A stretch of DNA of 63,757 bases, filler included. It is 6 parts of 6 records of this genome, joined end to end, with 100 filler letters (N's around TTAATTAATTAA, not from the genome) between each part and the next. Parts side by side here need not be neighbours in the genome. Positions count along the whole stretch, not along the records: positions 51,432 to 60,336 come from SRR20825010_1504; 5 more parts are not named here. One strand, given 5' to 3'. Positions 2,887 to 60,436 of this stretch are shown here, piece after piece. Under the pieces are notes generated by a model that saw only the letters and a program-made list of their open reading frames with translations, searched no databases and was not told the origin of the DNA. The position numbers were made by a program, and so were the translations under genes. How positions within the stretch are numbered: position 1 is the stretch's first letter; every line of letters begins with the position of its first letter.

Positions 2887-2909
2887 AAGTAAGTTTCCAA
2901 ACTTTCTTT

Positions 2910-3995
2910 TTATTCTCTTTTAATTAAAAGTAATTTTTCCGCAGCTTCAAAAGGTGTTGTTAAATTTTCATCCAAAGCTTTTAATTGTTTTTCAACTTCA
3001 ATTTTTATGAAAGGATTTGAATAAAAATCACTTTTTAGCCTACTTTCAATTGTTTGCATTAACCAAAATTTATTTTGCTCTTTTCTTTTATGTTGAAAGT
3101 AGCCATTACTTTCAACGGTTTTAAAATATGCTAAAACTAATTTCCAAATTTCAGTGATACCTTCATTATTTAAAGCACTGGATAGAAGCGTTTTTGGAGT
3201 CCAATCACTTTCTTTTGCAGGATAGAGATGAAGCGCGCGATTGAATTCGGTTTTGGCGAGTTTTGCAGCTTTTAGGTTTTCACCATCAGCTTTATTGATG
3301 ATTATTGCATCTGCCATTTCCATAATTCCGCGTTTTATACCTTGTAGCTCATCGCCAGCTCCAGCAAGTTTTAGCAATAAAAAGAAGTCTGTCATGGAAT
3401 GTACAGCAGTTTCACTTTGGCCAACACCTACGGTTTCAATTAGAATAACATTAAAACCTGCTGCTTCGCATAAAATAATTGTTTCTCGCGTTTTACGGGC
3501 AACACCTCCCAGCGTATCACCACTGGCTGATGGGCGGATAAAAGCATTTTTTTCCTTTACCAAATCTTCCATTCTGGTTTTGTCTCCAAGAATACTGCCT
3601 TTACTTATGCTACTGCTTGGATCTACGGTAAGTACAGCAACTTTTTTACCTTCAGAAACTAGGAGTTTACCAAAGCTTTCAATAAAAGTGCTTTTGCCTA
3701 CACCGGGAACTCCAGTAATTCCAATTCGGATAGATTTGTTTGCGTGAGGCAAACATTTTTCAATAATTTCTTTAGCTTGTTGTTGGTGTTTTTGCGCAGT
3801 ACTTTCAATAATAGTTATGGCTCGGCTAAGTGCAGTTTGATTTTTTTGAAGAATCCCTTCAACCAAAATTTTGGTGGAGGGTGTTTTCTTTAAATTTGTT
3901 TTAAGCTTTTTTGCAGCCTCTTTATTAAGGGTTTCTGGATATGAAACTCCTTTTATCTCTTGAAGTGCGCTTGTATTTCTTTTCTTTTCTGCCAC
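2910..3995 (-). CDS. meaB: Methylmalonyl-CoA mutase-associated GTPase MeaB
   Basis: GITGVPGVGKST, VDPSS...GSILGDKTRM, ETVGVGQSE, GDELQGIKRG, NKAD; GTG start. Confidence 0.93.
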   Translation of the reverse strand: MAEKKRNTSALQEIKGVSYPETLNKEAAKKLKTNLKKTPSTKILVEGILQKNQTALSRAITIIESTAQKHQQQAKEIIEKCLPHANKSIRIGITGVPGVGKSTFIESFGKLLVSEGKKVAVLTVDPSSSISKGSILGDKTRMEDLVKEKNAFIRPSASGDTLGGVARKTRETIILCEAAGFNVILIETVGVGQSETAVHSMTDFFLLLKLAGAGDELQGIKRGIMEMADAIIINKADGENLKAAKLAKTEFNRALHLYPAKESDWTPKTLLSSALNNEGITEIWKLVLAYFKTVESNGYFQHKRKEQNKFWLMQTIESRLKSDFYSNPFIKIEVEKQLKALDENLTTPFEAAEKLLLIKRE

Positions 3996-13711: not shown

Positions 13712-13811
13712 NNNNNNNNNNNNNNNNNNNNNNNNNNNNNNNNNNNNNNNNNNNNTTAATTAATTAANNNNNNNNNNNNNNNNNNNNNNNNNNNNNNNNN
13801 NNNNNNNNNNN
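13712..13811. other. Artificial contig spacer (N run with TTAATTAATTAA)
   Basis: 100-nt N block with a six-frame stop linker; sharp GC shift across it. Confidence 0.98.
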
Positions 13812-21942: not shown

Positions 21943-22042
21943 NNNNNNNNNNNNNNNNNNNNNNNNNNNNNNNNNNNNNNNNNNNNTTAATTAATTAANN
22001 NNNNNNNNNNNNNNNNNNNNNNNNNNNNNNNNNNNNNNNNNN
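21943..22042. other. Artificial contig spacer
   Basis: N block with TTAATTAATTAA. Confidence 0.98.
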
Positions 22043-36614: not shown

Positions 36615-36714
36615 NNNNNNNNNNNNNNNNNNNNNNNNNNNNNNNNNNNNNNNNNNNNTTAATTAATTAANNNNNNNNNNNNNNNNNNNNNNNNNNNNNN
36701 NNNNNNNNNNNNNN
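36615..36714. other. Artificial contig spacer
   Basis: N block with TTAATTAATTAA. Confidence 0.98.
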
Positions 36715-51331: not shown

Positions 51332-51431
51332 NNNNNNNNNNNNNNNNNNNNNNNNNNNNNNNNNNNNNNNNNNNNTTAATTAATTAANNNNNNNNNNNNN
51401 NNNNNNNNNNNNNNNNNNNNNNNNNNNNNNN
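51332..51431. other. Artificial contig spacer
   Basis: N block with TTAATTAATTAA. Confidence 0.98.
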
Positions 51432-52745
51432 GACCTCCCCCCGGCCCCCTCCCAAGGAGGGGGAGTTTAGTACCGTCTCAATTTTTGAAATTACCTCATC
51501 AATATTGTTGAGTACTTCATCATTGGTAAACCTTATTACGGTATAGCCTTTTTTCTGCTCCAACAACAATTGTCTTTCCGCATCCTCGTTCAATTGATAT
51601 TGGTGAATTTCTCCATCAACCTCCACGATCAATTCCTTTTCAAGGCAAACGAAATCAACTATATACCTAGAAATTGGATGCTGTCTCCTAAATTTCGAAT
51701 TCAAATTTCTATTTCTTAGAGCTTCCCATAGCAGAGCTTCAGCCTTTGTGGGATTCTTACGCATTTCTTGAGCCCTTTCCAATAAAACTCCGTAAATGTC
51801 AGAATCGGCCGTATGAAATTTTGGTGAAGACGAATCCGCCCCCCCTCCTTGGGAGGGGGCCGGGGGGAGGACCCTAAACGTAACTTCTGCCCCTTCGGAC
51901 CTGCCTATCCAATTGGTTTGGGAGTCCTTTAAGGGCTGTGGCCAATCTACCATAGCCAAATCGTCCAACAACCTCTGGGCATAGGCGGAGATACGCATAC
52001 TCCACTGGGTCATTTTTTTACGTATAACAGGATGGCCCCCTCGCTCGGAAACTCCATTGACAATCTCGTCGTTTGCCAAAACCGTACCCAAGGCCGGACA
52101 CCAATTCACTTCGGTCTCCGCCAAATACGTTAACCTATATTGCAATAAAACTTCCTGTTGTTCCTTTATTGTAAAGGCTTTCCAATCGGCTGCCGAAAAT
52201 AGGGTTACATCTTCATCACAAACAGCATTTACACTTTGGTTGCCCTCTTTTTCAAAAATAGCGATCAGACTGGAAATATCTTCGGCCTTATCGTTGTCCT
52301 TATTGTACCAGGAATTAAAAAGTTGGATAAATATCCACTGTGTCCATTTGTAATAATTGGGATCGGAGGTACGTACTTCCCGGCTCCAATCAAAAGAAAA
52401 GCCAATTTTATCCAACTGCTCCCTATATCTGTTGATATTGGCCTCTGTGGTAATGGCAGGATGCTGTCCTGTCTGAATGGCATATTGCTCCGCAGGAAGT
52501 CCAAAAGAATCGTACCCCATAGGGTGCAGTACATTAAATCCTTTGTGCCTCTTATAACGAGCATAAATATCGCTGGCTATATAGCCCAAGGGATGCCCTA
52601 CATGCAAACCGGCACCTGAAGGATAGGGAAACATATCCAGTACATAAAACTTTTCCTTTTGGGAATCATTTTCTGCTTTAAAAGTTTGGTTTTCAGCCCA
52701 AAATTTCTGCCACTTTTCTTCAATCTTCCTGAAATCGTAAGTCAT
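51432..52745 (-). CDS. leuS: Leucine--tRNA ligase (N-terminal part) carrying an in-frame DUF559 endonuclease insertion; 3' truncated
   Basis: [14 protein letters not shown] (HIGH), [42 protein letters not shown], then about 146 foreign residues. Confidence 0.96.
51434..51463 (+). repeat. REP-like palindromic repeat, copy 1 (CCTCCCCCCGGCCCCCTCCCAAGGAGGGGG)
   Basis: Exact reverse complement of 51841-51870; internal hairpin CCCCCTCC-CAA-GGAGGGGG. Confidence 0.92.
51841..51870 (-). repeat. REP-like palindromic repeat, copy 2 (inverted)
   Basis: CCCCCTCCTTGGGAGGGGGCCGGGGGGAGG, a 30/30 match to the reverse complement of copy 1. Confidence 0.92.
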
Positions 52746-52809
52746 CCTATATTGTTTGTCTTTAAATCCGGCGCACTAAGGGTACACACTCCATTTATTT
52801 AATGCAGGG

Positions 52810-52838
52810 CAAAAATAAGTTTAATCTATGAAAGCAAA
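52810..52838 (-). promoter_or_regulatory. Bacteroidetes sigma70 promoter for leuS (TTTG-N17-TATTTTTG)
   Basis: -7 TATTTTTG at 52817-52810 and TTTG at 52838-52835. Confidence 0.55.
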
Positions 52839-53098
52839 AAGATATTATCTACTTACCTACCAAAGCAAAAGTGATACATTGATCGTATCATATAAACCAC
52901 CCCTAAAGACAGCAGCATTAAACTTTTGTACATGGAATTTTCATTGCCCTACTATTGGCAAGGACAAAAATTGCAATTGAATTTCCCAAACACTGAAATT
53001 TCGTTGGACAACACTTTATATTGAAATTGATTATGAAACAAGCCTCAACCATTTCTAATTCAATTTACTTTCCTATTTTTACATATTGATTTTCAACT

Positions 53099-53977
53099 AT
53101 GAGTACATCTTTTGAACGTTTTCAAAAAAGAAAGCTTATCTCCTCTTATTTTTCAGTGGTCCTAAGTATTGGCTTGGTACTTTTTCTATTGGGTATATTG
53201 GGACTTTTAGTGCTGAATACCAAGAAACTGGCCGATCATTTTAAAGAACAGATCACTATATCCGTATTTCTTAAGGACAATGCCAAAGAAGTAGAGGTTG
53301 ACCAATTGCAAAAAAGCTTGGCCATGGCAGAATATACCAAAAAAGCCACCTATGTTTCCAAGGAACAGGCAGCAGAACAGCACAGTGAGGAAATTGGAGA
53401 GAATTTTTTGGATTTCTTGGGGTATAACCCACTTAAGAACTCCATAGATGTGCAACTTAAGGCCGATTATGTTTCTACAGAGAAGATTGCCGAAATAGCA
53501 GAGGAGATTTCCAGTAGGGACTATATTGAAGAAGTAAGCTACGACAAACCTTTGATTACACTGTTAAACGATAATGTAAAAAAAATTAGTTTCTGGATAC
53601 TGGTCGCCAGTGGTGTTTTTACTTTTATCGCGGTCTTATTGATCAACAGTTCCATCCGACTTTCCATTTACTCCAAGCGCTTTATCATAAAAACCATGCA
53701 AATGGTTGGGGCCACTAAGACTTTTATACGCAGACCCTTTATTTGGACCAACATTAAACTGGGGGTTCTTGGAGCGGTCATAGCCTTAATTGCACTAGGC
53801 TTTGTAATATATTATGTAGATATAAATTTTCCGGAGCTCAACCTTTTTCAAGACCCGACAATTTTGGTATTTCTTTTTGCAAGTGTCTTCTTTTTAGGGG
53901 TCTTGATTTCCTTTATTAGCACATTTTTTGCAACACAACGTTTCTTAAATCTTAGAACAGACGATTTATATTATTAA
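53099..53977 (+). CDS. ftsX: Cell division permease FtsX
   Basis: YVSKE.A, NPL..S, INSSIRLSIYSKRFIIKTMQMVGAT..FIRRPF; four TM helices. Confidence 0.92.
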   Translation: MSTSFERFQKRKLISSYFSVVLSIGLVLFLLGILGLLVLNTKKLADHFKEQITISVFLKDNAKEVEVDQLQKSLAMAEYTKKATYVSKEQAAEQHSEEIGENFLDFLGYNPLKNSIDVQLKADYVSTEKIAEIAEEISSRDYIEEVSYDKPLITLLNDNVKKISFWILVASGVFTFIAVLLINSSIRLSIYSKRFIIKTMQMVGATKTFIRRPFIWTNIKLGVLGAVIALIALGFVIYYVDINFPELNLFQDPTILVFLFASVFFLGVLISFISTFFATQRFLNLRTDDLYY

Positions 53978-53986
53978 CTTTGCGGC

Positions 53987-54253
53987 ATGAGTAAAAAACA
54001 AAATAATAATCAACCACAAAAGCCTAGACAGGAATTTATTTTTCAGAAGAAAAATTACCTTTTTATGTTTATTGGTTTGGCATTGATTAGCCTAGGATTT
54101 ATCCTTATGAGCGGTGGCGGAAGTGACGATCCCAATGTTTTTAATCCTGAGATTTATAATTTCAGAAGAATACGCTTGGCCCCTACATTGGTGTTGATAG
54201 GCCTGGGAATAGAAGTTTACGCCATTCTGTTGAATCCGCATAAGAAGAAATAA
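53987..54253 (+). CDS. DUF3098-family small membrane protein
   Basis: F.KKNY..M.IG...I.LGF.LM.GGGS.DP..FN..I..FRRI.LAP; between ftsX and uppP. Confidence 0.85.
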   Translation: MSKKQNNNQPQKPRQEFIFQKKNYLFMFIGLALISLGFILMSGGGSDDPNVFNPEIYNFRRIRLAPTLVLIGLGIEVYAILLNPHKKK

Positions 54254-54256
54254 ATT

Positions 54257-55042
54257 TTGGACATATTTGAGGCTATTTTACTTGCCATTATTGAAGGCAT
54301 AACCGAGTATTTACCGGTTTCTTCAACTGGACACATGATTATTACATCTTCCTTTTTTGGTATTGCACAGGAAGATTTCACCAAATTATTTACTATCGTT
54401 ATCCAATTGGGCACCATACTTTCTGTTGTGGTACTGTACTTTAAGCGATTCTTCCAAAGCATCGATTTTTATTATAAGCTATTGGTCGCTTTTATTCCTG
54501 CGGTGGTCTTGGGCCTGCTCTTGAGTGACGTAATCGATGCCTTACTGGAAAGTCCGCTTGTAGTGGCCATTTCCTTGGTAATAGGAGGTTTTATTCTCCT
54601 AAAGGTGGATGACTGGTTTGGAAATTCTGAGAACACCGATATTTCATATGCTACGGCTTTTAAAATTGGACTCTTCCAGTGTTTGGCAATGATTCCGGGT
54701 GTTTCCAGAAGTGGTGCCAGTATTGTTGGAGGTATGACCCAAAAACTATCCAGGACTGCAGCGGCAGAATTTTCATTCTTTCTGGCCTTGCCCACCATGT
54801 TTGGGGCTACCCTTAAAAAGAGTTATGACTATTACGATGCCGGCTTTACCCTTACCTCCGAACAAATAAACCTATTGATTATAGGAAACGTAGTTGGTTT
54901 TATAGTGGCCCTTTTCGCAATTAAGACCTTTATTGGGTATTTGAGCAAACACGGCTTTAAGATATTTGGCTACTACAGAATAGTAGTAGGCATCGCAATC
55001 ATTGTCATACATTATTTTATAAGTCCGTTAACGGTAATGTAA
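54257..55042 (+). CDS. uppP: Undecaprenyl-diphosphate phosphatase
   Basis: [44 protein letters not shown]. Confidence 0.96.
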
Positions 55043-55737
55043 TGACAAAGGAAGACTTTTTAGAGGGGCAGGTATTATTGATAGACAAACCGCTTGGTTG
55101 GTCATCTTTCCAAGCTGTCAATTCCTTAAAATGGAAAATCAGAAAGAAATTTCAACTTAAAAAAATTAAGATAGGCCATGCCGGGACCTTGGATCCGTTG
55201 GCGACCGGATTATTACTCATCTGTACAGGAAAAGCCACTAAAACCATAAACGAACTACAAGGTCAGGAAAAAGAATACACGGGAACTATTACCCTTGGCG
55301 GCACAACCCCGTCCTATGATCTGGAAACGGAAATAAACGAAAACTTTCCCATAGATCATATTACCAATGAACTGATCCACAGTACTACTGCCCAATTTAT
55401 TGGGAACATAGAACAAATTCCACCCGTTTTCTCGGCTCTAAAAAAAGACGGCAAAAGACTTTACGAGTACGCCAGGGAAGGTAAGGAAGTAGAGATAAAA
55501 AAAAGAGGGGTCACCATCACAGAATTTGAAATTACCTATATAGAACTGCCAATGGTACAGTTTAGGGTGGCCTGCAGTAAAGGCACCTATATTAGATCTT
55601 TGGCGCATGATTTTGGAAAAGCACTACAATCCGGAGCGCATTTATCCTCGTTGAAAAGAACCAAAATAGGGGATTACAACGTAAATAAAGCCATAACCCC
55701 CGAGGAATTTGGTAAATTACTGCAAATCGACAGTTAA
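55042..55737 (+). CDS. truB: tRNA pseudouridine(55) synthase
   Basis: IDKP.GWSSF, GHAGTLDPLATGLL, PP.FSALK.DGKRLYE.AR, CSKGTYIRSLA.D. Confidence 0.97.
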   Translation: MTKEDFLEGQVLLIDKPLGWSSFQAVNSLKWKIRKKFQLKKIKIGHAGTLDPLATGLLLICTGKATKTINELQGQEKEYTGTITLGGTTPSYDLETEINENFPIDHITNELIHSTTAQFIGNIEQIPPVFSALKKDGKRLYEYAREGKEVEIKKRGVTITEFEITYIELPMVQFRVACSKGTYIRSLAHDFGKALQSGAHLSSLKRTKIGDYNVNKAITPEEFGKLLQIDS

Positions 55738-55814
55738 ACTTCGATATAACAAGTGGTAACCTAACCGTTCGTCGATAATTTGAAATATTTTTGATAAAAC
55801 GTGGTTATATCACT

Positions 55815-56552
55815 ATGAATTTAAACCGTAAACAACTTTCTTTCTTAATAACATTCTTTTCCATGGCCTTGGTGGTGTTGGGTTTATACAACATCCATTT
55901 GGGACAGGAAGAAAAAGAAGAGTATGTTATTGAATTAAGTTTGTTGGAAGAGGAGGAGCTGGAAAAGCCAATTGAAGAAGAATTAAAGGAAATGGAAGAA
56001 ATGGCCAAGGCAGATCCCGTTAAAAGTCATATGGCCTATAATGAGGCCAATAAACCAAGTTTCGGCAATCCTGAACCACTCAAAACATTGGAGGAAATAT
56101 TGGAAGAACAAGAGCTGTCCTCCGATAGTGATGATCCTACGGACTATCTTAGCTCCGACTCAGAATATGCCGCAAGAGTAAAGGAATTGGCCAAGAGAAG
56201 AAGGGAAAAACAAGAACTATTGGGAGAAAAGGAAGCTAGTAAGGAAGTAATGACCAACAATTTGGCCAAAAGAAGAACTTCTATTTCCTACTCCTTGGTG
56301 GACAGAAGGCATACCAGTCTTCCCATACCCATTTACACCTGTATAGAAGGGGGTAAAGTAGTCATTAATATTAAGGTCGACCCATTAGGAAAGGTCATTG
56401 AGGCCGATGTAAACAAAAAAAGTTCCAGTACCCTGAATGGCTGTCTTGTGGATAACGCCATTGAATACGCCTTAAAATCCAAATTTAATACTGGAGAAAA
56501 GGCTGAACAAATGGGCACCATTACCTATCTATTCCAAGAAAAGCAAAGATAA
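55815..56552 (+). CDS. TonB-like energy transducer family protein
   Basis: N-terminal TM, acidic linker, C-terminal P.Y.C..GGKVV.NI.V...G.V..A...A...A.K.KF...Q.GTITY.F. Confidence 0.7.
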   Translation: MNLNRKQLSFLITFFSMALVVLGLYNIHLGQEEKEEYVIELSLLEEEELEKPIEEELKEMEEMAKADPVKSHMAYNEANKPSFGNPEPLKTLEEILEEQELSSDSDDPTDYLSSDSEYAARVKELAKRRREKQELLGEKEASKEVMTNNLAKRRTSISYSLVDRRHTSLPIPIYTCIEGGKVVINIKVDPLGKVIEADVNKKSSSTLNGCLVDNAIEYALKSKFNTGEKAEQMGTITYLFQEKQR

Positions 56553-57152
56553 AAGGTCGCTCACGGTATTTTGTCCCTTATCCTTATTATACCAGAGCTG
56601 TAGATCCTGTTTAAATTCTGCCGTCAACTTCCCGTGCTTACTTTTGTAGTCCTGCACCATTTTGGCAGCAATGGAGGGCCGGGAACCCCATTCCCCAATA
56701 ACCTTGCCCGTAGTATCATCAATGGAAATCAGTTTTGGAATGGCCATAGCCCCATTGGACAAAAACTGCTCCATTAGGTCCAGATTTTCATCGCGCAATA
56801 CAAGTCGTAACGAAATATTCTTATTTAAATCCGTAATCTTATTCATTACAGGTAGTGTCTGGGCAGCATCGCCACACCAACTCTCAGTAAGCACCAACCA
56901 GGTGGTTTTTTTAACTATCCCTTTTATTTTGGCCTCGGAATCAGCATCAATCTTAATGGTTTTGTCCAAACGTTTCATTCGTTGATCGTTGAGACGTGTA
57001 AAATCATTATGTTCCTGACTTTCTATTGATCCAGTGGATTTTCCCTCCAAAGCCAAATTGGACACCATTAACCTGTAATCTAAATAAGCCATGGAAGAGT
57101 TTATACCCTCCCGAACCAATTGTTGTTTTGTTTTCCGTATTGTTTCTTCCAT
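56529..57152 (-). CDS. Thioredoxin family protein (WCGD type)
   Basis: TESWCGDA, RDEN..LM..FL.NG..AIPKLI, WG.RP; TAATTTTG -7 element at 57182-57175. Confidence 0.85.
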   Translation of the reverse strand: MEETIRKTKQQLVREGINSSMAYLDYRLMVSNLALEGKSTGSIESQEHNDFTRLNDQRMKRLDKTIKIDADSEAKIKGIVKKTTWLVLTESWCGDAAQTLPVMNKITDLNKNISLRLVLRDENLDLMEQFLSNGAMAIPKLISIDDTTGKVIGEWGSRPSIAAKMVQDYKSKHGKLTAEFKQDLQLWYNKDKGQNTVSDLLSLLFLE

Positions 57153-57271
57153 AAAATGTAAAAACTATTTGCTCCAAAATTAGCCCTTCCCAAGGCAGCA
57201 TTTGGTAACAATAGTTACATTGGTAGTATTACCCAAGCAATACTTACATATACAAATGGTAAAGGGAAATA

Positions 57272-58207
57272 TTAGTGGTTCAAAGCCCGTTTTTTGATCA
57301 TCCCACCTTTAGTGTCATTTATACTATTCATGACAACAAAAGCGTTTGGGTCTATCTTTTCCAGTTCGGTGTTTAATTTACTAATCTCCAATCTGGTAAT
57401 TACGGCATAAATAATGTCGTACTCATTGTGGACACCACTCTTGCCGTAACCGCCATGACCCTTATAAATTGTAAGGCCCCTTCCCAGTTTTTCCGTAATC
57501 ATTAGTCTAATCTCCTCACTACGGGCAGAAATGATTGTGACCCCAGTGTACTCCTCGATCCCATCCACCACGAAATCCAAAGTTTTCGAAGCCGATAAAT
57601 AGGTCAACATGGAATAAAGGGCTGTCTCCAAAGAAAGGAAATAGGCAGCCGCCAAGAATATTATAATATTTATTACAATAATATTATCCCCAATTTTGGT
57701 CCTTAATTTCCTGCTCAGATAAATGGCCAGTACTTCAGTGCCATCCAAGACACCACCTCCCCTAATAGAAAGACCTATTCCGGCCCCCAGGAAGAAACCT
57801 CCAAAAACCGCTACCAACAGTTTGTCCTCTGTCACTTCCGGGAAGTGTACCGTGGCCAATACTATGGCCAGACCAATAATTGCCAAAGAGGCCTTGATGG
57901 CAAATTGTTTGCCTATCACCTTAAAACCAAGAAATATAAATGGAATATTAACAAGAATAATCAATATGTATAAGGGTATTGACGAGATTTCGGAGATCAA
58001 AAGTGAAATTCCCGTTGCCCCACCATCAATAAAGCTATTGGGCAATAGAAAACTCTCCAAACCAAAGGCTGCAGAAAAAATCCCCGCAATTATAAACAGG
58101 GCATCATGTATGTCCGCAAAAATCCCAACCCTAAACCTCCGGGATTTCTTCCAATAGGAATAGAGGTTGGATCTAAAGTCATGACTCTTTTTCTTTTTAT
58201 CGGGCAT
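57272..58207 (-). CDS. YitT-family membrane protein (with DUF2179 C-terminus)
   Basis: FLLPN.FIDGG.TGIS, NIPF, GG.LDGTE.LA, RG.T...G.GGY, IDP.AF. Confidence 0.9.
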   Translation of the reverse strand: MPDKKKKSHDFRSNLYSYWKKSRRFRVGIFADIHDALFIIAGIFSAAFGLESFLLPNSFIDGGATGISLLISEISSIPLYILIILVNIPFIFLGFKVIGKQFAIKASLAIIGLAIVLATVHFPEVTEDKLLVAVFGGFFLGAGIGLSIRGGGVLDGTEVLAIYLSRKLRTKIGDNIIVINIIIFLAAAYFLSLETALYSMLTYLSASKTLDFVVDGIEEYTGVTIISARSEEIRLMITEKLGRGLTIYKGHGGYGKSGVHNEYDIIYAVITRLEISKLNTELEKIDPNAFVVMNSINDTKGGMIKKRALNH

Positions 58208-58447
58208 ATTCTAAAATTAAAATAAGATTTATTAAAAACAAAGACAGATTATCAAGCTGCCTTCCATAAAAAATTCAATGTTTTAAAAGAAAACAAACTG
58301 CGTAATTACTGCGCTGTGAAATTAGAAAATCAAATTTTAATAATGGAGATCCCTTGGGTCATAAATGAATTTAATTTGCACCCCACTGATTCTCCCACAT
58401 GGTTATGCTACCAATATACTATCTTTACCAAGCGATTATAACTTCCC

Positions 58448-58960
58448 ATGAAAAATCTGTTCCAAATACTTATAAGCCTTTTTTGCCTTTGCGCAATGCG
58501 CGGTCAAAGTGAGATAGACCAAGCTTTAAGGAAGTTCAACAATAAGAGCGTGCCTTATATAACAGCGGAAAACTTAAGGGGAAATACCCCGTTTCTGCTC
58601 TTGGACACCAGAGAAAAAGAGGAATTTGAGGTAAGCCATTTGGCAAAGGCCGTATGGGTGGGCAATAGGAATCCTGATGTGGACAAAATAACATCGATTG
58701 TTCCCAACAAAAATAAGCCTATCGTTGTCTATTGTTCCATAGGGGTTCGATCTGAAAAAGTTGGGGAAAAGCTTTTAAAAAAAGGCTATACCGAAGTCTA
58801 CAACCTTTATGGCGGTATTTTTGAATGGAAAAATAAGGGTTTTCCCGTTTATGATTCCATAGGACATGAAACGGATAGGGTGCATGCCTATAACAGGCAT
58901 TGGGGCAAAATGTTGAACAATGCCACTAAAGTTTATGGACACAGAAAACACAACAACTAA
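58448..58960 (+). CDS. Rhodanese-like domain protein (secreted)
   Basis: LLDTRE.EEF.VSHL..A, VVYCSIGVRS, NLYGGIFEW. Confidence 0.9.
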   Translation: MKNLFQILISLFCLCAMRGQSEIDQALRKFNNKSVPYITAENLRGNTPFLLLDTREKEEFEVSHLAKAVWVGNRNPDVDKITSIVPNKNKPIVVYCSIGVRSEKVGEKLLKKGYTEVYNLYGGIFEWKNKGFPVYDSIGHETDRVHAYNRHWGKMLNNATKVYGHRKHNN

Positions 58961-59121
58961 AAACCGATAATGACTAAAGGCATTAATCGGGCCTAGAGGG
59001 TAGGAAAAGGGCATATCCCATCAAATTCTCAATTTCCAACCTATAATTAAGTAATGAACACCAACCCATAACGACCATTAAGTTCAAGTCCATTATATTA
59101 AAGAGATATTCGATAGTCAAA

Positions 59122-59733
59122 ATGAACCACCGCAAAGATTTGCTTATCATATTTACACGCAATCCCGAACTGGGCAAGTGCAAAACCAGATTAGCGGCAA
59201 CAGTGGGCCATGAAAGTGCCCTAAACATATATAAATTTTTACTTGATCACACCAAGAATATTACCCAGGGTTTAAATTTCAGGAAATGGGTTTGCTATTC
59301 CGATGATATATGGGAAAATGATATTTGGGATAAATCCGTTTATGAAAAAAAAGTACAATCCGGCAATGACTTGGGAGAGCGCATGTACAATGCCTTTAAA
59401 GAGGGATTTAATGCAGGCTATAAAAGAATAATTATCATTGGAAGTGATATGTACGATTTGAACGAAAATGATTTGTTGGAAGCCTTTCAATTATTGGATC
59501 AGCATGATTATGTAATAGGTCCTGCCATTGATGGCGGCTATTATTTATTGGGGATGAAAGTCTTGAGCCCCAATCTGTTTAAAGATAAAACCTGGGGCAC
59601 TGATACTGTATTGAAGGCTACCTTAGAGGATTTGAAAAATAAAAACTACAGCCTGTTAGCTCCTAAAAACGATATTGACTATTTTGAAGATATCAAGGAT
59701 ATTGAAATCTTCCGAACCTTTTTAAAAAATTGA
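59122..59733 (+). CDS. TIGR04282/DUF2064 glycosyltransferase-like protein
   Basis: IFTRNP.LG.CKTRL, Q.G.DLGERM..AF, IIGSD, GPA.DGGYYL.G, W.T..V, DID..ED. Confidence 0.88.
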   Translation: MNHRKDLLIIFTRNPELGKCKTRLAATVGHESALNIYKFLLDHTKNITQGLNFRKWVCYSDDIWENDIWDKSVYEKKVQSGNDLGERMYNAFKEGFNAGYKRIIIIGSDMYDLNENDLLEAFQLLDQHDYVIGPAIDGGYYLLGMKVLSPNLFKDKTWGTDTVLKATLEDLKNKNYSLLAPKNDIDYFEDIKDIEIFRTFLKN

Positions 59734-59739
59734 AATTAT

Positions 59740-60336
59740 ATGACGGGTAAACTACTTAAGGAATCTACTGATTATCTAATAGGAAAAGGCTTTGAAGCTC
59801 CTGAAATTGGCATTGTACTGGGAACAGGTTTGGGCAAACTGGCAGATGAAATTGAAAATCCTATAGAAGCACATTACAACCATATTCCCTATTTTCCCTT
59901 GGCTACCGTAGAATTCCATTCCGGTAAATTAATCTATGGAATCTTGGAGGGCAAAAAAGTTGTAGTAATGCAGGGAAGGTTCCACTTTTACGAAGGATAT
60001 GACCTTTTGGACGTTACCTACCCTATTAGGGTAATGGAAATGCTGGGAATAAAAAAACTATTTATATCCAATGCTGCCGGGGCCATAAACCAAGATTTTA
60101 AGAAAGGTGACCTTATGCTCATCGAAGATCACATTAACCTTCAAGGTGGATCTCCCTTAGCATTTAAAAACGTGAGCCAATTTGGAGATCGTTTTACCGA
60201 TATGAGCGAACCATATGACCTTCCTATGCGCAAAAGTTTGGAAAAAATAGCCGAAAAGGAAAACATAAGCCTGCAGAAGGGGGTTTACGCTTCTGTTGTT
60301 GGACCTCAACTGGAAACCAAGGCAGAATACCGAATG
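59740..60336 (+). CDS. Purine-nucleoside phosphorylase (PNP I type), 3' truncated
   Basis: IVLGTGLG, IP.FP..TV.FH.G.L, QGRFHFYEG, SNAAG, DHIN, GPQLET.AEY. Confidence 0.92.
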
Positions 60337-60436
60337 NNNNNNNNNNNNNNNNNNNNNNNNNNNNNNNNNNNNNNNNNNNNTTAATTAATTAANNNNNNNN
60401 NNNNNNNNNNNNNNNNNNNNNNNNNNNNNNNNNNNN
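60337..60436. other. Artificial contig spacer
   Basis: N block with TTAATTAATTAA. Confidence 0.98.

Follow-up and report, generated by a model that had tools for sequence, protein, structure and literature searches.

An in-frame DUF559 nuclease gene bracketed by three-block inverted repeats in leuS of an Arenibacter-like bacterium: a candidate selfish cassette

We analysed a stretch of 63,757 nt (hereafter the window) that is made up of six contigs, and we describe a segment at the left end of one of them (51432-60336, 8905 nt, 39% G+C), where the essential leucyl-tRNA synthetase (LeuRS) gene leuS of an Arenibacter-like bacterium carries an insert that is in frame and read through. The insert, which we call the cassette, consists of a three-block GC-rich arm, an open reading frame (ORF) for a DUF559 nuclease and the same arm inverted, in that order, and its parts are as follows.

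51432..52745, minus strand: open frame of 438 codons, LeuRS residues 1-292 followed by the cassette as residues 293-438; ends at the contig end
51871..52745, minus strand: 5' part of leuS, as far as the entry to the CP1 editing domain, by sequence comparison
51841..51870, minus strand: N-side arm, one copy of the inverted repeat, translated (V)LPPAPSQGG
51870-51863, 51859-51852 and 51848-51841, minus strand: blocks A, B and C of the N-side arm, with loops 51862-51860 and 51851-51849
51464..51840, minus strand: interior of 377 nt, open frame, DUF559 module as residues 303-428
51468..51779, minus strand: DUF559 / Vsr-like PD-(D/E)XK domain, residues 323-426 (Pfam PF04480)
51434..51463, plus strand: C-side arm, contig bases 3-32, translated from the minus strand as PSLGGGRGE(V)
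51434-51441, 51445-51452 and 51456-51463, plus strand: blocks A, B and C of the C-side arm, with loops 51442-51444 and 51453-51455
51332..51431, no strand: artificial spacer (N44, TTAATTAATTAA, N44) to the left of the cassette contig

The C-side arm reads CCTCCCCCCGGCCCCCTCCCAAGGAGGGGG on the plus strand and has its exact reverse complement in the N-side arm (30/30 matching, with 377 nt between them), as an earlier note on this DNA, made from the letters alone, had claimed; none of 100 shuffles gave any match to the 30-mer (0/100), and the window holds no further copy at up to 3 mismatches. The arms are 25/30 G+C in a contig that is AT-rich, which the same note had also described correctly. 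In other units that we examined, paired arms differ at 2-7 positions. The cassette adds 438 nt, or 146 codons, directly behind the F-x-V codon that marks entry into the LeuRS editing domain, a site that forms a variable-length loop of 25-59 residues in leuS genes lacking the cassette. All six frames of both arms are free of stop codons, and when translated the arms yield Pro/Gly-rich stretches, such that the linkers flanking the nuclease domain are the translated arms themselves.

Evaluating the enclosed 377 nt confirmed that they encode the nuclease, with a PF04480 match of 3e-35 (120.8 bits against a cut-off of 20.6) that spans 104/109 profile positions, and the 146-aa insert matched no other Pfam family and no Hint/splicing domain. 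The conserved acidic/His core (vDF ... ExDGxxH ... D..R) is present, and each of the residues D364, E375, D377, H381, D388, R391 and R405 is retained by 103-105 of the 105 related inserts. The nearest solved relatives are PDB 3hrl (1e-18), which is enough to settle the fold, and, weakly, 3r3p, a "mobile intron protein" (0.009), and the available text of Steczkiewicz et al. 2012 (PMC3424549) places Vsr, DUF559, 3hrl and 3r3p in one clade for which a group I intron homing endonuclease is cited. The insert is thus a predicted Vsr-like nuclease, for which the DNA-damage (SOS) response triggered by a DUF559-containing protein in Caulobacter, as reported in the accessible part of Matthey et al. 2026 (PMC12907096), offers only indirect support. 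Phage records gave three weak protein matches at 35-36% identity, which were uninformative.

Because the left arm lies only 2 nt from the contig end, where the leuS frame is truncated and beyond which the spacer leads to an unrelated contig of 56% G+C with an FtsK-like gene, the terminal arm could be a fold-back or chimeric contig end; we give this assembly artefact next to no probability, and it is effectively refuted by independent assemblies and read-run depth. Full-length leuS genes with both arms occur in independent assemblies (P0004-P0011; L043/L147), among them a 1143-aa LeuRS (P0004) whose insert is 100% identical to that of the window and which runs on as ...GEV|NSKEMEISVFTTRPDT into the editing domain. 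We approached arm copy number through one genome (G042, below) and two public DNA runs (X1 and X2). In both runs contigs end exactly at the arms, a 432-nt contig covers 51438-51869 with a depth close to that of the leuS contig beside it, and arm words are 8-12x as deep as the flanks; the arms are therefore multi-copy in the genomes of these runs. A single-copy arm-to-arm contig between arms of such depth is the expected picture of a repeat break, and since the arms are multi-copy, the contig end at the left arm is an assembly break at a multi-copy repeat. The earlier note had overlooked this contig end.

Each arm goes beyond a plain hairpin in that it is composed of three blocks, CCTCCCCC / CCCCCTCC / GGAGGGGG, with the G-rich strand reading CCCCCTCC-TTG-GGAGGGGG-CCG-GGGGGAGG. 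The 8-bp stem with a 3-nt loop that the earlier note had seen does fold as described (-9 kcal/mol in ViennaRNA, which treats hairpins only), but the third block had been missed and the hairpins are not stabler than composition-matched shuffles (z -1.26 and +0.39). Because the folding energy is unremarkable, the case for arm structure rests on conservation and covariation. To this end 61 arms with at most 7 mismatches were collected from the loci, and the 21 exact ones, which had been picked by exact match, were excluded; across the 40 variant arms, mismatches fell at 97/240 loop positions versus 55/960 block positions (odds ratio 11). In L068 and L052 the hairpin stem has changed in a compensatory way, all three blocks are altered together in the arm of L098 (CCTCTCCC / CCCTCTCC / GGAGAGGG), and GGAGAGGG is borne by the distant arms L012, L059 and L098. 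Between the window and L043, an Arenibacter-type locus, arms differ by loop changes only (CGG to TAA or CTG; CAA to CAG). For the 30/30 identity of the two window arms, constraint on the blocks together with conversion of one arm by the other is a better explanation than recent insertion.

From this design the arms appear to belong to the TM/BoxC class of three-block "intrastrand triplex" repeats rather than to the classical REPs (repetitive extragenic palindromic, REP), a distinction that the earlier description of REP-like ends had missed. In the available text of Holder et al. 2015 (PMC4666352), the TM(ECO)/BoxC motif runs from a C-rich stem through a loop to a G-rich stem, which is followed by a 3-nt loop (TTA in "type A", CCG in "type B") and a mirrored G-rich stem. 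The arms share this layout, with CCG in the window as in type B and TAA/TTA in relatives as in type A, and they also resemble the class in being multi-copy, in occurring as singlets and inverted pairs, and in having loops that are less conserved than stems. They differ in having blocks of 8 nt (GGAGGGGG / GGGGGAGG) where the TM consensus has 9 nt (GGGNGAGGG), in residing in Bacteroidota rather than Proteobacteria or Cyanobacteria, and in being translated inside genes. A comparison with Rfam revealed that both arms match whalefall-1 (RF01762) at 20 and 18 bits, far below the gathering score of 37, at these positions:

51839-51872, plus strand: sub-threshold whalefall-1 match
51432-51465, minus strand: sub-threshold whalefall-1 match

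The whalefall-1 consensus (CuCuCC-loop-GGaGaG ... GgGuGAGG) has the same block design with 24 more positions between blocks, and this "RNA motif" may be the same class of DNA repeat as the arms. Two further Rfam matches, to snoRNAs, were taken as chance.

We next turned to other genomes, where the exact 30-mer was present in 21 other species (Flavobacteriaceae, Saprospiraceae, Cytophagales, Bacteroidales and Prevotellaceae), where it forms singlets, inverted doublets and arrays, and hence it is not confined to the window. Eight of these 21 loci possess a second, imperfect arm, always in the order plus then minus, across unrelated spacers of 9-120 nt, and in 2/21 (L006 and L009) a DUF559 ORF adjoins an arm. 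Locus L012 holds a tandem array (2900-3170) of 68-bp units, each with a variant of the three-block arm (CCTCACCCC..CCCCTCTCC..GGAGAGGGG).

The converse view, starting from the nuclease, came from a PF04480 search of 151 genomes (150 genera) of the family of G001, the nearest genome compared, in which 79 genomes had matches; the best 30 DUF559 loci served as a sample unbiased by arm sequence. GC-rich pyrimidine/purine hairpins were found at 11.8/kb within 130 nt of DUF559 and at 0.56/kb in the rest of the same 30 loci, a ratio of ~21-fold that is meaningful, whereas the absolute figures are less so since both strands of near-palindromes are counted. At least one border hairpin was present at 28/30 loci and hairpins on both sides at 16/30, with none inside the DUF559 domain at any of the 30. 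These loci include free-standing ORFs of 121-176 codons and inserts in frames of 346-1300 codons. A regular expression for the third block near DUF559 loci returned 5 rows, the pattern being too strict. Within leuS itself, 78 of 80 loci fetched with the N-terminal part could be classed by NWIG-TTRPDT spacing:

Basic spacing of 25 residues: 33 loci
Spacing of 26-59 residues: 24 loci
Spacing of at least 150 residues: 21 loci

Among these classed loci, the inserts that keep ExDGxxH had hairpins at their edges in 13/13 cases and at both edges in 11/13, and hairpins were absent from the decayed inserts (0/8) and the empty or short sites (0/57). Thus the ends that the earlier note expected on DUF559 inserts of related leuS genes are found on every intact one, and the co-occurrence it proposed to check is borne out by the border enrichment. 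By association, DUF559 and such hairpins are tightly linked.

At the level of whole genomes, the window-type core (scored at up to 1 mismatch) was present in 13/151 genomes, with PF04480 found in 12/13 of these versus 67/138 of the others (Fisher p 0.003) and strong PF04480 matches in 11/13 versus 46/138 (p 0.0004), p-values that overstate the case as the genomes are kin. The individual cores tell a looser story, with 5/32 lying within 150 nt of a DUF559 match and 27/32 not beside one. This would be expected if the repeats spread or recombined by other means, such as a RAYT/IS200-type Y1 transposase (RAYT, REP-associated tyrosine transposase) acting in trans, replication slippage or structure-induced breaks, and if DUF559 were often captured between them as a passenger, the insert then being a tolerated, host-constrained domain. 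Such an account, which we rate as unlikely though not negligible, can also draw on the tie between TM repeats and local instability without any enzyme in the accessible text of Holder et al. (PMC4666352), on the vertical inheritance and host-like dN/dS described below, and on the Y1 transposase family PF01797, which is present in 8/13 core-bearing genomes versus 45/138 others (odds ratio 3.3, p 0.06). Yet DUF559 co-occurs with the cores more strongly than this transposase does, no PF01797 match is adjacent to any core, and 5/13 core-bearing genomes have none. Chance capture also leaves unexplained the same-polarity hairpins at 28/30 DUF559 loci and the absence of arms from precisely those inserts whose catalytic motif has decayed (0/8).

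Outside Bacteroidota, in Escherichia coli K-12, TM no. 9 of Holder et al. is located between fabI and ycjD, ~170 nt away from ycjD, the DUF559 gene of this bacterium, whose 3' end is overlapped by a degenerate TM-like hairpin:

L152 5205-5240: TM(ECO) no. 9, E. coli K-12
L152 5393-5425: degenerate TM-like hairpin, E. coli K-12

The available text of Holder et al. (PMC4666352) reports no associated mobility gene and mentions neither ycjD nor DUF559.

Inserts of this kind are also found beyond leuS and at more than one site. At E <= 0.001, 675 long proteins matched the insert, and the 120 listed matches comprised 115 LeuRS, 2 isoleucyl-tRNA synthetases (IleRS) and 3 MetH-like proteins, 19 of the 120 having two DUF559 domains; by eye, the insert flanks in these listed matches are Pro/Gly-rich arm translations of several types. 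In G001 the sole DUF559 is in frame in IleRS and abuts that genome's only perfect core, and a cassette occupies the same IleRS site in P0060. In P0003, leuS holds a second cassette just before KMSKS, a position at which G001 and P0041 have a solo arm. These solo arms are translated as TPSSGGGKGED in G001 (C1:848943-848961; L001 189-218) and as LPLGEGRGGV in P0041.

Short relatives of the cassette were found in G042, which has 13 cores, two of which flank its leuS DUF559 and eight of which form four copies of a ~179-bp element. The four copies have the same arms as the cassette and homologous interiors, and all are intergenic; two of them (L140 and L142) are nearly identical, and L017, being identical to L141, was left out of the count. 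A loose end in run X2 also matches the interior of the ~179-bp element.

Comparing filled and empty alleles defined the codon junction. Filled Arenibacter-type alleles read ...agg GTC [CTC CCC ... GAG] GTC aat..., the empty allele of Arenibacter echinorum reads ...acgtttagggtt|aagggg... (agg gtt aag), and in other genera the cassette begins at the same codon position (...GTC|CTCCCC or ...ATC|CTCCCC). The flanks are GA|...|AC in 8/8 Arenibacter-type units, short elements and leuS cassettes alike, and differ in other genera. Four filled/empty pairs (L059/L065, L033/L034, L108/L095 and L090/L105), owing to their divergence or misalignment, gave no finer placement of the junction or of a target duplication. 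Of the exact ends and target duplication that the earlier note had sought from empty alleles, the comparison gives the codon junction and a GA|...|AC flank pattern. The 24 nt directly downstream of the insert differ strongly between filled and empty Arenibacter alleles whose flanks are ~93% alike, and this divergent stretch could be a co-conversion tract.

The distribution of the cassette among close relatives is scattered. Arenibacter echinorum has an empty site in a LeuRS whose N-terminus is 97% identical, the Arenibacter-type locus L043 is filled, and G001 reads straight through (...GAEVQFKIQNSEFRIDVFTTRPDT). On a host tree of 76 genes (FastTree, with Shimodaira-Hasegawa-like supports; two loci were dropped for short flanks), the intact cassette was scattered to the maximum, requiring 12 changes for 12 rows, at least 9 of them forced by well-supported branches, and the decayed cassettes required 3 changes for 8. 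The decayed inserts, of ~156 residues, have IVEVDGEIH (IVEVDGxxH) changed to IVEF(S/A/V)GKE(D/E)E and lack GC-rich arms:

L042, L049, L050, L056, L058, L061, L071 and L086: decayed leuS inserts, one Polaribacter-centred clade

These look like an old, inactivated cassette. Replacement is seen as well as scatter. The hosts P0024 and P0059 are 97% identical and have inserts only 67% identical with different arms, the P0024 insert grouping with P0033/P0040 though its host is nearest P0059, and a clade of hosts that are 90-97% identical contains two interleaved cassette lineages (66-70% identical) that differ in their C-side arms. Scatter and replacement together show turnover at this site by gain, precise loss or allele exchange.

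Within the lineage of the window, in contrast to the "very recent insertion" that the earlier note had offered, the cassette is old and vertically inherited. Compared with L043, the DUF559 core has a synonymous divergence (dS) of 0.43 and a ratio of non-synonymous to synonymous divergence (dN/dS) of 0.057 (21 synonymous and 6 non-synonymous changes), and the host leuS N-terminus has a dS of 0.48 and a dN/dS of 0.054. As insert and host dS are equal, the cassette predates the split of the window and L043 lineages, which refutes a very recent insertion, and strong purifying selection acts on the nuclease. Such selection on a vertically inherited copy would also suit a protective role, in which DUF559 is a Vsr-like nuclease for repair or structure processing that resolves the repeat hairpins or triplexes and is kept nearby as a guard. 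Vsr-family membership of DUF559, the mismatch-repair role proposed for the Caulobacter DUF559 protein (available text of PMC12907096) and the destabilising effect of TM repeats reported in the accessible text of PMC4666352 all agree with this; we nevertheless regard it as quite improbable, as it does not explain why presence and absence are scattered at one exact site, why cassettes have been replaced between hosts that are near-identical, why one protein can hold several cassettes, or why nuclease motif and arms decayed jointly in one clade.

At the RNA level, a contig from an RNA library (X16, covering 51667-52114) joins the DUF559 core, an arm and leuS, which is consistent with co-transcription of the cassette with leuS and no removal from the RNA, with the caveat that the library may contain DNA. 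Folding of 51432-51890 (minus strand) predicted that the arms pair in a 32-bp stem with the ORF looped out (-162 kcal/mol, z -6.7). The essential leuS mRNA would have to tolerate such a stem.

A perfect 30-bp inverted repeat might alternatively drive programmed inversion of the 377-nt interior, and DUF559 is among the families enriched in predicted programmed inversions in the available text of Milman et al. 2023 (PMC9881135). An in-silico flip, however, puts 6 in-frame stops in leuS, the first at residue 304, and would truncate the essential enzyme; a switch function is therefore implausible. We rejected inversion on this ground, leaving it only a very slight probability, and no strand-changing joint was seen in the run contigs. 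The enrichment in PMC9881135, as its accessible text presents it, is more simply a consequence of the arms being inverted repeats.

Taken together, comparison with other genomes suggests a widespread and apparently undescribed selfish cassette, and for the leuS insert we favour, at slightly better than even confidence, a selfish element made of arms and a DUF559 nuclease in which the nuclease drives the spread. The nuclease-plus-repeat idea of the earlier note thus survives in its core and fails in its timing. From the association we infer that DUF559 may recognise or move the arms. In the proposed mechanism, DUF559 would recognise the arm in its folded or three-block state, whether hairpin, cruciform or triplex-like DNA, and would nick or cut at that point; cutting at an arm would drive copying of the cassette into new sites or empty alleles; the short elements would be copied in trans by the same nuclease; and an insertion into an essential gene would survive only if it is in frame, on the same strand and in a surface loop.

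Several of our observations weigh against this selfish-element interpretation. The nuclease is tied to the arms purely by association, the arm hairpins are of unremarkable stability, most cores are not beside DUF559, the co-occurrence was scored among kin, G061, a core-bearing genome that is 86% complete, gave no DUF559 match, and the DUF559 of L009 has direct rather than inverted arms. Insert identity tracks host identity (Pearson 0.78 over 105 LeuRS, 5460 pairs), and the equal dS of insert and host gives no sign of recent movement in this lineage. The scatter could be due to repeated precise loss or leuS allele exchange and not to nuclease-driven gain. Strong purifying selection on a vertically inherited insert is not predicted for a homing gene that is fixed and purely selfish, and it could point to a role at the level of the host or to a constraint on folding. 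Lastly, target duplication is not established, although the GA|...|AC flanks would fit a 1-nt duplication at GAC/GTC (437+1 = 438; 179+1 = 180).

Among known systems, the REPtron is a RAYT (Y1/HUH) gene flanked by inverted REP/REPIN sequences. The cassette resembles it in having a single nuclease-type gene bracketed by an inverted hairpin repeat that is also dispersed as solos and doublets, and differs in that its enzyme is a PD-(D/E)XK Vsr-like protein rather than an HUH tyrosine transposase, in that the same 30-mer is common to families of a phylum, and in that it sits in frame in essential genes. With homing endonucleases (the Vsr-like I-Bth0305I family, PDB 3r3p) it shares a Vsr-fold nuclease at a fixed point of a conserved essential gene, presence and absence among close relatives, incongruence between host and insert, and nuclease decay in an old, fixed lineage; in contrast to them it has no intron or intein, stays in the protein, possesses terminal inverted repeats (TIRs) and short non-autonomous relatives, and is only weakly similar to 3r3p (E 0.009). 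It differs from inteins in lacking a Hint/splicing domain and splice-junction residues. TIR transposons and miniature inverted-repeat transposable elements likewise have terminal inverted repeats common to a coding element and short multi-copy elements, whereas here the sole ORF is DUF559 and not a DDE-type transposase. Rickettsia palindromic elements, which likewise insert in frame into proteins, have no enzyme gene and are limited to Rickettsia; the cassette has its DUF559 gene and lies outside that genus. Of homing elements that sit in frame without splicing, the ShiLan-type insertion in actinophage methylases comes closest as a precedent and, in the available text of PMC11855218, is unspliced and homing-like with an HNH read in another frame; there too the host frame stays open without a splicing domain, and the cassette differs in having DUF559 in the host frame, hairpin ends and a home in bacterial chromosomes rather than phages. 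We found no literature linking DUF559 to these repeats or describing such in-frame cassettes, in a search whose coverage excluded subscription journals.

A broader proposal, which we hold tentatively and at somewhat less than even confidence, is that DUF559 proteins are the missing partner enzymes of TM/BoxC repeats across phyla, forming a new class of mobile element in which a Vsr-fold nuclease that recognises structure and has folded three-block ends spreads itself and short, non-autonomous copies and persists unspliced in essential genes. If firm, the link between DUF559 and the repeats would explain both the TM/BoxC repeats, catalogued for decades with no enzyme or mechanism, and DUF559, a large family of unknown function. 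Next to introns and inteins, it would give selfish nucleases a third means of residing in essential genes, the cassette persisting as an additional domain that is translated, much as an intein would if it never spliced. Odd extra domains and Pro/Gly-rich stretches annotated in many housekeeping proteins would be accounted for as well, as would assembly breaks at arm sites, and the arms would probably explain why DUF559 is enriched among the predicted "programmed inversions" (available text of PMC9881135). Arms and nuclease might, moreover, yield a structure-specific DNA tool.

A few minor observations complete the picture. In one run a contig joint from 51467 to 51840 (side 30) leaves out 372 nt, and we take this as most likely coming from another arm copy and not excision. 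Several leuS genes (L051, L069, L076, L084, L092, L096, L105 and others) have short in-frame inserts with ...S(S/A)AVE(K/G)S..., a peptide that also occurs at the downstream edge of the L042 decayed insert, and these are possibly another translated repeat family using the same leuS loop. The L058 contig belongs to a metagenome-assembled genome labelled Arenicella (Pseudomonadota) and has a Polaribacter-like leuS nested in Flavobacteriaceae, which is probably bin contamination. The window itself looks as though a flavobacterium and an organism of higher G+C had been binned together, with its six contigs falling into two composition classes (33-39% versus 56-61% G+C) and being separated by five artificial linkers, each N44-TTAATTAATTAA-N44:

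13712-13811, 21943-22042, 36615-36714, 51332-51431 and 60337-60436, no strand: artificial linkers

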